From Nanobdellota archaeon (GTDB lineage Archaea > Nanobdellota > Nanobdellia > Woesearchaeales > GW2011-AR4): a DNA stretch of 64,000 nt. Below, in pieces: positions 44,286 through 60,938 of this stretch (positions within the stretch are counted from its first letter, which is position 1; every line of letters starts with the position of its first letter). The notes beneath the pieces were generated by a model. The model was not told where the DNA came from and did not search any database. It saw only the letters and a program-made list of their open reading frames with translations. The stretch is from positions 1 through 64,000 of the forward strand of contig JBBSWH010000001.1 of the NCBI GenBank assembly GCA_038046385.1. The letters run 5' to 3'. The translations under genes and the position numbers were made by a program.

Positions 44286-44404
44286 AGCCTCTGATGGGAA
44301 TTGCACCCACGACCTTTGCCTTTTAGGCTAGCATATGGTACCAAGGCTTCGCGGATTAAAAGAATACTTCCAATCTAACGCAATGGCTACTATGCTACAG
44401 AGGC
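44286..44404 (-). tRNA. tRNA-Thr(GGT) with two introns (44348-44376 at 28/29; 44322-44338 at 37/38)
   Basis: GCCTCTG/CAGAGGC acceptor stem; removing both BHB-like introns restores TTGCC-TTGGTAA-GGCAA. Confidence 0.8.
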
Positions 44405-56141: not shown

Positions 56142-56259
56142 TGCGGGGGAAGGGATTCGAACCCCCGAATCCACTAAGGAACAGGATAGCTTATCTCGCT
56201 TACAGCGCGAGTGTTCCATCTTAAGTCCTGCGCGTTTGGCCAGGCTTCGCTACCCCCGC
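56142..56259 (-). tRNA. tRNA-Leu(TAA) with canonical 32-nt intron (56188-56219)
   Basis: GCGGGGG/CCCCCGC acceptor stem, long variable arm, CAGGA-CTTAAGA-TCCTG, BHB helix CTTA/TAAG. Confidence 0.92.
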
Positions 56260-59943: not shown

Positions 59944-60031
59944 TGTCAGAAATCATAAAGTCCATAATAATAGTTTTGATTTCTGAGCATGATCAAAAAC
60001 ACTTTTAGCACTTATTAGGGTGTTTTTGACA
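59944..60031 (+). repeat. Family D element
   Basis: tgtcagaaatca..tgatttct GAGCATGATC aaaaacac..gtgtttttgaca. Confidence 0.78.
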
Positions 60032-60068
60032 TAATCTTTATAAAGCGAATAAAATACTTTTATTTCAT

Positions 60069-60216
60069 CCCCGCGTAGCTTAACGGCGGAGCGCTCGGCT
60101 GTGAGACTTTAAAGTCTGGCTAGAGATGCGCTCTAAGACCTTACGCTATTCTAGCGAGGAATGATAGAGAGCCAGTCGTGCCCGGGAGGTTGCTGGTTCA
60201 ACTCCGGCCGCGGGGA
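60069..60216 (+). tRNA. Intron-containing tRNA, probably tRNA-Tyr(GTA) with a split anticodon (unspliced reads GTG/His)
   Basis: CCCCGCG/CGCGGGG-A acceptor stem (C1:G72, A73), T-arm GCTGG-TTCAACT-CCGGC, 76 extra nt in the anticodon loop. Confidence 0.75.
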
Positions 60217-60314
60217 TTTTGGGTTAGCGTCATTGCTAACCCTATATTTTTCTATTAAATACCACTGGACATCTCCGCCTAAGATATTTAAAGCAAAACA
60301 TCTTAATTCTCATT

Positions 60315-60938
60315 ATGAAAACAAAAATATTGAAATATGGTTTTAAGAAACTAACAAAAGCTAAATCCAGAATCATTGCACATTTGATAGGAGACGGCTG
60401 TGTTTACAAAAGCAATCATGATTATAACATTAAATATGAAGTAAAAGATCAAGAATCTTTAGATTCTTTTGAAGAAGATTTGATTTCCGTTTATGGCTTA
60501 AAATTAACTAAAGGATTTAAAAATTCCGGATTTACTGGCAAGCCCATCCCTTTTATAAGATTAAGATCAAAACTGGCTTATGAGGACTTATTGCGCTACG
60601 CAACCTATAATTCAAGAGATTGGAAAATTAATTCAATAATTCCCCCTTCATCTAAAACAATAAAAAAAGAATTTCTCAAGGCATTGTTTGATGACGAAGG
60701 AAGTGTAATAATAAAAAGCAAAAATAGCGAAGTCAGGCTCTATTCAATAAATTTGGACGGCTTAACACAAATACAAAAAATACTGCTGGATTTTGGTATT
60801 AACACAAAGATAACTCCAGGATACGGCTTGAAAAGGAATGTGTATGCCGTAATAATTAAGGATTTAATGGCATTTAGGAAAAAGATAGGATTCAATTTAA
60901 GGAGAAAACAAGACAAACTTGATACCTTAAAATTCTAA
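60315..60938 (+). CDS. Free-standing LAGLIDADG homing-endonuclease-like protein
   Basis: Two LAGLIDADG helices, IIAHLIGDG and FLKALFDDEG; no intein splicing motifs. Confidence 0.85.
   Translation: MKTKILKYGFKKLTKAKSRIIAHLIGDGCVYKSNHDYNIKYEVKDQESLDSFEEDLISVYGLKLTKGFKNSGFTGKPIPFIRLRSKLAYEDLLRYATYNSRDWKINSIIPPSSKTIKKEFLKALFDDEGSVIIKSKNSEVRLYSINLDGLTQIQKILLDFGINTKITPGYGLKRNVYAVIIKDLMAFRKKIGFNLRRKQDKLDTLKF

Follow-up and report, generated by a model that had tools for sequence, protein, structure and literature searches.

Positions 60069–60216 on the forward strand of a 64,000-nt stretch of archaeal DNA (hereafter the window) very probably encode a tRNA-Tyr(GUA) whose transcript carries two protein-spliced introns of the BHB type within the anticodon loop, removed stepwise. 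Comparison with orthologous genes indicates that the introns are two, with a 2-nt exon (A36 G37) between them, and that the anticodon GUA is predicted to exist only after the intron at 35/36 has been removed.

The host is a DPANN Woesearchaeota archaeon from groundwater, and its genome (G000; 1.28 Mb in 19 contigs, 38% G+C, 85.1% complete) has 20–24 detected tRNA genes. The Rfam tRNA model (RF00005) matches the locus over model positions 1–71 with 43.2 bits against a gathering score of 29, and its alignment places a 78-nt insertion in the anticodon loop after CUGUG. With default settings ARAGORN called no tRNA in the 64-kb window; with introns allowed it reported a tRNA-His(gtg) with a 76-nt intron at the target locus and, across the whole genome, 24 tRNA genes with no Tyr among them. 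The layout of the gene is given in Table 1. A contig of another study covers 60017–60330 with 0 differences. Contigs of other organisms match only the exons, at 60067–60102 and 60181–60220 (starting at 60181/60182), and no intron-less DNA form of the locus was seen among the matching DNA contigs.

Table 1. Layout of the interrupted tRNA gene and its flanks (window coordinates; abbreviated end positions share the leading digits of the start).
Feature	Position	Strand	Basis
TATA-box-like element TTTATAAA, ~25–32 nt upstream of the tRNA 5′ end	60037–60044	+	
5′ exon, tRNA positions 1–35: acceptor, D arm, C32 U33 G34 U35	60069–60102	+	Rfam alignment
Acceptor stem, CCCCGCG / CGCGGGG	60069–75 / 60209–15	+	sequence
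D arm	60078–92	+	sequence
Anticodon stem, CTCGG / CCGGG	60094–98 / 60182–86	+	sequence
GGCT (positions G30–U33), 5′ strand of the central helix of the mini-intron BHB	60097–60100	+	
Bulge GTG	60101–60103	+	sequence
Predicted mini-intron, 21 nt, between positions 35 and 36	60103–60123	+	BHB scan and orthologs
Hairpin palindrome AGACTTT/AAAGTCT, inner helix	60104–60117	+	
GGCT, 3′ strand of the central helix	60118–60121	+	
Bulge AGA	60122–60124	+	sequence
Micro-exon, 2 nt: A36 (third anticodon base) and G37	60124–60125	+	orthologs
Predicted large intron, 55 nt, canonical 37/38 position	60126–60180	+	ortholog comparison
K-turn-like helix CTCTA/TAGAG	60131–35 / 60165–69	+	sequence, drawable motif
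K-turn-like element GA	60137–38	+	
K-turn-like element CC/GG	60139–40 / 60158–59	+	
K-turn-like element, hairpin	60144–48 / 60152–56	+	
K-turn-like element AAU	60160–62	+	
K-turn-like element GA	60163–64	+	
3′ exon, positions 38–73, starting with C38	60181–60216	+	Rfam alignment
Variable loop AGGTT; T arm GCTGG-TTCAACT-CCGGC	in 3′ exon	+	sequence
T run directly 3′ of A73	60217–60220	+	sequence

Of 58 distinct tRNA-Tyr orthologs, 45 have a motif of the TTTATA[AT]A type in the 130 nt preceding the gene, and we infer a promoter role for TTTATAAA. At the 3′ end, the sequence at the locus does not encode CCA after A73, and the T run that follows presumably acts as a terminator. Right after this run, at 60221–60243, there is a hairpin, GGGTTAGC...GCTAACCC, and a similar one is found in orthologs L023, L024, L027 and L028.

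The initial annotation had drawn a BHB at 35/36 from two GGCT strands with bulges GTG and AGA, bounding a 21-nt intron at 60103–60123 whose loss would yield GUA. Our coordinates match, and covariation among orthologs now backs the structure. In the BHB scan the motif has 4/4 central pairs (two Watson-Crick and two G-U), and its inner and outer helices are 5 and 2 bp long. The same loose scan also picks up numerous BHB-like motifs by chance across the 148 nt, so that the motif carries little weight by itself. When the 78-nt insert was shuffled, 69 of 20000 sequences gave a 35/36 BHB with an inner helix of at least 4 bp that yielded GTA and a purine at 37. The same layout recurs in 21 distinct orthologs (class B), reading GGCTGT, one bulge base, hairpin, [AG]G[CT][CT], A plus one base, AG and then ATGCGC..., and the hairpin sequence is different in all 21. 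The inner helix abutting the bulge has a mean length of 4.76 bp in these orthologs compared to 0.70 bp when shuffled, with a maximum of 1.52 bp in 2000 shuffles. In the alignment of the mini-intron structure (A2) 98.2% of 218 cells are paired, with compensatory changes in 5/5 inner pairs; the observed pairing and covariation were reached by 0/500 shuffles, and slid controls gave 21–50%. The mini-intron has the strict hBHBh′ form, its central helix being paired in 100%, its inner helix in 96.7% and its outer helix in 97.6% of cells. Across the orthologs the central pairs are G:C or G:U, and U:G or U:A, and the outer pairs are C29:G37 in 21/21 and U28:A in 20/21.

Unspliced GUG is not conserved, because the base after U35 varies among the 21 orthologs (T in 11, G in 9, A in 1). 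On one tRNA body the unspliced triplet would read Asn, His or Tyr; once the intron is taken out, GTA results in every ortholog, as the initial annotation had expected for this gene. The two bases of the micro-exon (AG, columns 47–48 of alignment A2) are invariant. Some of the class-B pattern searches required AG after the intron; in class-B orthologs from searches lacking this requirement AG is present in 13/13. A family-wide class-B pattern produced five chance matches (G429, G403, G017, G440:C21 and G443), which a stricter regular expression dropped before counting, and a 15-nt exon pattern that produced 120 unrelated, mostly bacterial matches was replaced by a gapped pattern, with which 3 of 14 matches were bacterial chance hits.

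The boundaries of the large intron come from comparison with 37 further distinct orthologs, in which an uninterrupted CTGTAG is followed by one intron (these include L194, from an unpublished genome, and the boundary argument stands when it is left aside). Eight of the 37, all from the same genus as the target, have a perfect 37/38 BHB, CTGT x [GA][CT]AG, followed by [CT]T | C and then CCGRG. As these perfect BHBs end YT|C CCGRG, position 38 is the base directly before the stem. Among the other uninterrupted orthologs the 3′ end CAG[CT][CT]G NN|N38 is found in 28/29 (the common type) and TAGCCG in one. In class B, 13/21 genes end CAGYCG (in the target CAGTCG at 60173–78, then TG | C CCGGG) and the other 8/21 end CAGCCA, 7 of these 8 lying outside the genus. 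Whether interrupted or not, the genes of the genus have C at position 38 and those of other families have A; the only exception is L203, which has C although it lies outside the genus. The shared 3′ end and this genus/family base pattern place position 38 at C60181 and the predicted large intron at 60126–60180. The 11-nt remainder for which the initial annotation had found no convincing BHB is, by the same comparison, identified as the conserved 3′ end of the 37/38 intron, with a pattern present in 28/29 single-intron relatives; CAGTCGTG reads as the normal end of such an intron.

In the splice-site register, the central helix of the large intron has 3/4 pairs in the target (C32:G, G34:U and U35:G), with U33 opposite C. 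Over the 58 orthologs there are 3/4 pairs in 42 (target included), 4/4 in 8 and 2/4 in 8, the last being the class-B orthologs that end CAGCCA; a mismatch of U33 with a pyrimidine is constant in 50/58. The intron end CAGYYG (60173–60178) also pairs at 5–6 of 6 positions with tRNA positions 29–34 (60096–60101) in 50/58 orthologs. This register is 3 nt off the cleavage register, and where its bases vary, those facing G30 and G31 remain pyrimidines. As a 7-nt loop is impossible in it, cleavage does not take place in this register; splice registers derived from it were rejected, giving 6- or 8-nt loops or U37 in orthologs. Its helix G30–U33, which is directed at 35|36, is the one that the mini-intron also uses. 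Boundaries were decided without free-energy folding, which fails to recover the BHB motifs.

The amino-acid identity of the gene follows from its acceptor end and from the rest of the genome. C60069 pairs with G60215 (C1:G72), the discriminator A73 is A60216, and position −1 is T (60068), leaving the target without G−1; all three features had been seen in the initial annotation. In a survey of 3936 archaeal tRNA genes, the PPV of G72 for Tyr was 0.99 and that of C73 for His was 0.97, the sensitivity being 1 for both (PMC5029447). The target has the C1:G72 and A73 of a tRNA-Tyr, and GUA in a 7-nt loop appears only after in-silico removal of both introns: without 60103–60123 and 60126–60180 the product is 72 nt long, has the loop CUGUAGC and is called Tyr(gta) by ARAGORN. 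It has neither the G−1 and C73 nor the conserved GUG of a tRNA-His. A separate intron-less tRNA-His(GTG) lies on another contig (C5:113272–113344), with an encoded G−1, C73 and the acceptor GCTGCGG/CCGCGGC. It is the best Rfam tRNA match of the genome (61.9 bits) and has an ortholog in 21/43 genomes of the genus at E≤1e-5, among them G001, G009 and G020, in which an interrupted tRNA-Tyr gene is present as well. In a genome-wide search for C1, G72 and A73 with the start of a D arm, the target alone was tRNA-like, the other 23 matches lacking T arms, and among GC-rich tRNA-like candidates in the genome it alone begins with C. Neither a contiguous Tyr anticodon arm in a tRNA context nor a second tRNA-Tyr candidate was found in the 85%-complete assembly. 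Judged from its sequence and that of its relatives, the locus is a tRNA-Tyr(GUA) and not a tRNA-His. The initial annotation had suspected as much and had proposed looking for other Tyr and His genes, a check that returned the canonical tRNA-His and no competing tRNA-Tyr.

The call that ARAGORN makes with introns allowed amounts to a tRNA-His(GUG) with a single 76-nt intron, and the in-silico product of that excision also folds as a cloverleaf. We give this reading next to no credence: it would be a tRNA-His with no G−1 and with A instead of C at position 73, where the sensitivity of C73 for archaeal His is 1 (PMC5029447), in a genome that already has a proper tRNA-His elsewhere. It would also leave out a BHB backed by covariation, and would read a triplet whose last base is G in only 9 of the 21 orthologs (T in 11, A in 1). 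Nor do we think that the target is a decaying pseudogene, with a working tRNA-Tyr in the unassembled 15% of the genome, a possibility that the 85.1% completeness and the count of 20–24 tRNA genes would allow. The exons are invariant or nearly so and the intron hairpins carry compensatory substitutions across 21 orthologs, the TATA-like element has been kept, and each of four relatives that are 90–99% complete (G001, G003, G009 and G020) has one gene of the tRNA-Tyr family; on this evidence decay is extremely improbable.

The genome has one EndA gene (200 aa, with N-terminal and catalytic domains; PF02778 and PF01974) and one RtcB ligase gene. EndA aligns almost gaplessly to the M. jannaschii alpha4 enzyme and is without the 6 extra C-terminal-domain residues of the N. 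equitans alpha subunit, so a broad substrate specificity is not evident. An alpha4-like EndA is expected to accept a strict hBHBh′ motif anywhere in the transcript. In the RNA structure shown by the covariation, on which the first step of the proposed pathway would act, G30–U33 pair with GGCT at 60118–21, the hairpin at 60104–17 forms the inner helix, and C29:G60125 with U28:A60126 form a 2-bp outer helix. The 3-nt bulges G34 U35 | G and A G | A36 would then present the splice sites; EndA would cut at 60102|60103 and 60123|60124, and RtcB would join U35 to A36, creating the GUA anticodon. By homology, the resulting intermediate would have the layout of the single-intron pre-tRNA-Tyr of most relatives, and in the second step 60126–60180 would be removed at the canonical 37/38 site, with G37 joined to C38. 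Sequential removal is plausible because, with a 2-nt exon, four simultaneous cuts would free an AG dinucleotide; at each step these two bases would have to remain joined to one of their flanks. Removal of the mini-intron first appears the likelier order, since only then would CUGU be stacked on the anticodon stem beside the A36 G37 | A bulge, and since the outer helix of the mini-intron uses A60126 of the large intron.

The initial annotation had also described a canonical 37/38 BHB, CTGT with ATAG, and had envisaged two or three introns separated by exons of 1–2 nt. The motif is present (ATAG at 60164–67, bulge AG|A), but the comparative data indicate that it is not the splice site used; two introns with a 2-nt exon are retained, and the third intron and the 1-nt exon A60170 are not, position 38 being C60181. 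A model with three introns (60103–60123; 60126–60169, bounded by CTGT x ATAG and AG|A; and one of 11 nt), in which A60170 would be position 38, has in its favour a 4/4 helix and a 3-nt AG|A bulge after the first splice, which is a better central helix than that at the 60180 boundary, and a product that ARAGORN likewise calls Tyr(gta). It is nevertheless very unlikely. T165–G169 pair with C131–A135 inside the intron and, by eye, C131:G169 becomes T:A in L022, L024, L026, L173 and L176; the leftover is only 9 nt in 9 orthologs (T CAGYCGKK; hand count), where its 2-nt loop is too short for a BHB hairpin. A, T and G all occur at the would-be position 38, whereas the base next to the stem follows the taxonomy (C for the genus, A for other families, L203 excepted), and 28/29 common-type single-intron relatives carry CAGYYG NN as part of one intron. 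With the two introns placed as we propose, it is also conceivable that there is no fixed order, and that the large intron or its 3′ site may be cut first. The site U G | C38, where the large intron ends beside the anticodon stem, is independent of the mini-intron; the large intron has a weak central helix both before (2/4, hand count) and after (3/4) the first splice; and C. merolae removes its BHBs in an order that depends on motif stability without being absolute (PMC3728597). Against this, A36 G37 are preceded, until the first splice, by four intron bases (CTAG) unstacked on the anticodon stem; excision of the large intron first would cost the mini-intron outer helix its U28:A60126 pair, present in 20/21 orthologs; and simultaneous cleavage at all four sites would release the free dinucleotide. 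We consider the absence of a fixed order unlikely, and favour stepwise removal beginning with the mini-intron.

A further-reaching reading is that the anticodon of the only tRNA-Tyr is spread across two exons and that Tyr decoding depends on an obligatorily ordered double splicing, with the pairing of 60173–78 and positions 29–34 as a possible switch. Taken as a whole we hold this tentatively and find it rather doubtful. As a conformational switch, that pairing may keep the large-intron sites misaligned for as long as the mini-intron is present. The helix of the 29–34 register that points at 35|36 may also be a trace of mini-intron gain.

The core of the large intron resembles a K-turn (Table 1) and may be a binding site for L7Ae. 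The arrangement GA[CT]...hairpin...[AG]ATGA recurs in tRNA-Tyr introns across the order with very different hairpin sequences, and ATGA is present in 29/30 order-wide loci (GTGA in one; by reading) and in 21/21 class-B rows. Covariation of the K-turn within class B was not significant (229/500 shuffles were as high), and no Rfam family matched in the large intron. In the MAFFT alignment A1 the 3′ strand of the intron inner helix is out of register between two sub-types, and this helix was left out of the pair counts. The euryarchaeal pre-tRNA-Trp intron carries a box C/D (K-turn) RNA. The target resembles it in having GA...(R)AUGA elements around a hairpin in a 37/38 intron, in a K-turn-like arrangement, but differs from it in lacking a usable pair of boxes C and D. 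No pair of box C (RUGAUGA) and box D (CUGA) with a long enough guide was found, and a box C/D guide function was rejected for the large intron.

The exon pattern was found in 182/401 sampled genomes of the order. Thirty loci drawn from this order-wide search comprise 27 with a contiguous GTA and 3 with a mini-intron. The genus of the target has 12 distinct interrupted genes, the target included (L012, L021–L029, L173 and L176), and 8 distinct uninterrupted ones (L032, L035–L038, L040, L041 and L044). Beyond the genus, interrupted genes were seen in four further genera of its family and in at least four more families (G025, G033, G063 and G196). Within the genus, species carry either the interrupted or the uninterrupted allele. 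As the large introns of the two alleles are unlike, this suggests allele replacement or transfer between the two types rather than simple intron loss. Orthologous tRNA-Tyr genes have additional introns in the D loop (L025–L029 and L044), the T loop (L021, L027–L029, L035, L037–L039 and L044) and the variable region (L200, L204 and L209), with up to four interruptions per gene.

BHB introns outside the canonical site, as many as three in one gene, have been described for archaeal tRNAs (PMC4090602, PMC3239211), and according to the tRNAscan-SE 2.0 paper some introns are such close neighbours that the second BHB forms only once the first intron has gone (PMC8450103). Ordered processing has also been observed in C. 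merolae (PMC3728597). Non-canonical positions named in the excerpted text of one survey are 20/21, 22/23, 25/26, 29/30, 30/31, 45/46, 53/54, 56/57, 59/60 and 3/4, with 35/36 not among them there (PMC4090602). Our literature search returned no archaeal BHB intron at 35/36 and no 2-nt tRNA exon; the position tables of earlier surveys may list such cases. Multi-intron archaeal tRNAs and an ordered formation of BHBs are thus known already, and what appears unusual here is the intron within the anticodon triplet and the 2-nt exon. The target shares protein-spliced BHB introns with the multi-intron tRNA genes of Thermoproteales (Pyrobaculum, Thermofilum) and with the ARMAN-2 tRNA-Pro(GGG) (53/54 and 59/60). 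It differs from them in having an intron within the anticodon triplet itself and an inter-intron exon of only 2 nt, in that the unspliced gene would specify the wrong amino acid, and in its lineage, a DPANN Woesearchaeota with a single alpha4-like EndA. Compared to a canonical 37/38 hBHBh′ intron, the large intron is alike in position, in the pairing of C32 with a base 3 nt before the 3′ splice site and in the use of the anticodon stem as outer helix. It departs from it in the U33 x pyrimidine mismatch, a perfect central helix being confined to the 8 same-genus genes lacking a mini-intron, and in that an intron end of the target type pairs better with positions 29–34, in another register.

Since the anticodon triplet is itself interrupted and the exon that completes it is 2 nt long, the identity of the gene is unreadable without splicing. 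For annotation this means that a false tRNA-His (Asn or His in orthologs) is added and the true tRNA-Tyr is hidden. Disrupted tRNA genes, and predicted tRNA sets that are incomplete, have been reported for DPANN genomes (PMC5829648), and the locus provides one concrete case behind the latter. For the mechanism, it offers a compact natural test case of ordered BHB splicing with a 2-nt exon and an apparently plain alpha4-like endonuclease; for evolution, the presence of both alleles in one genus is material on the gain and loss of tRNA introns.

The reverse strand of the window holds two further tRNA genes with introns. The one at 56142–56259 is a Leu(taa) with a canonical 37/38 BHB (CTTA x TAAG); for the other, at 44286–44404, ARAGORN made no call even with introns allowed. 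Downstream of the target, a 32-nt module at 60262–60293 consists of ACCACTGGACAT, 7 nt and CTAAGATATWTAAA, and at least 8 further copies occur on 7 contigs of the genome, with a raised depth in metagenome contigs. The module lies ~25 nt upstream of ORF starts and probably serves a repeated gene family as a common promoter or operator. The product of the ORF behind it, at 60316, contains a LAGLIDADG-like ‘LIGDGCV’ motif, as does that of the ORF behind the copy on contig C10.
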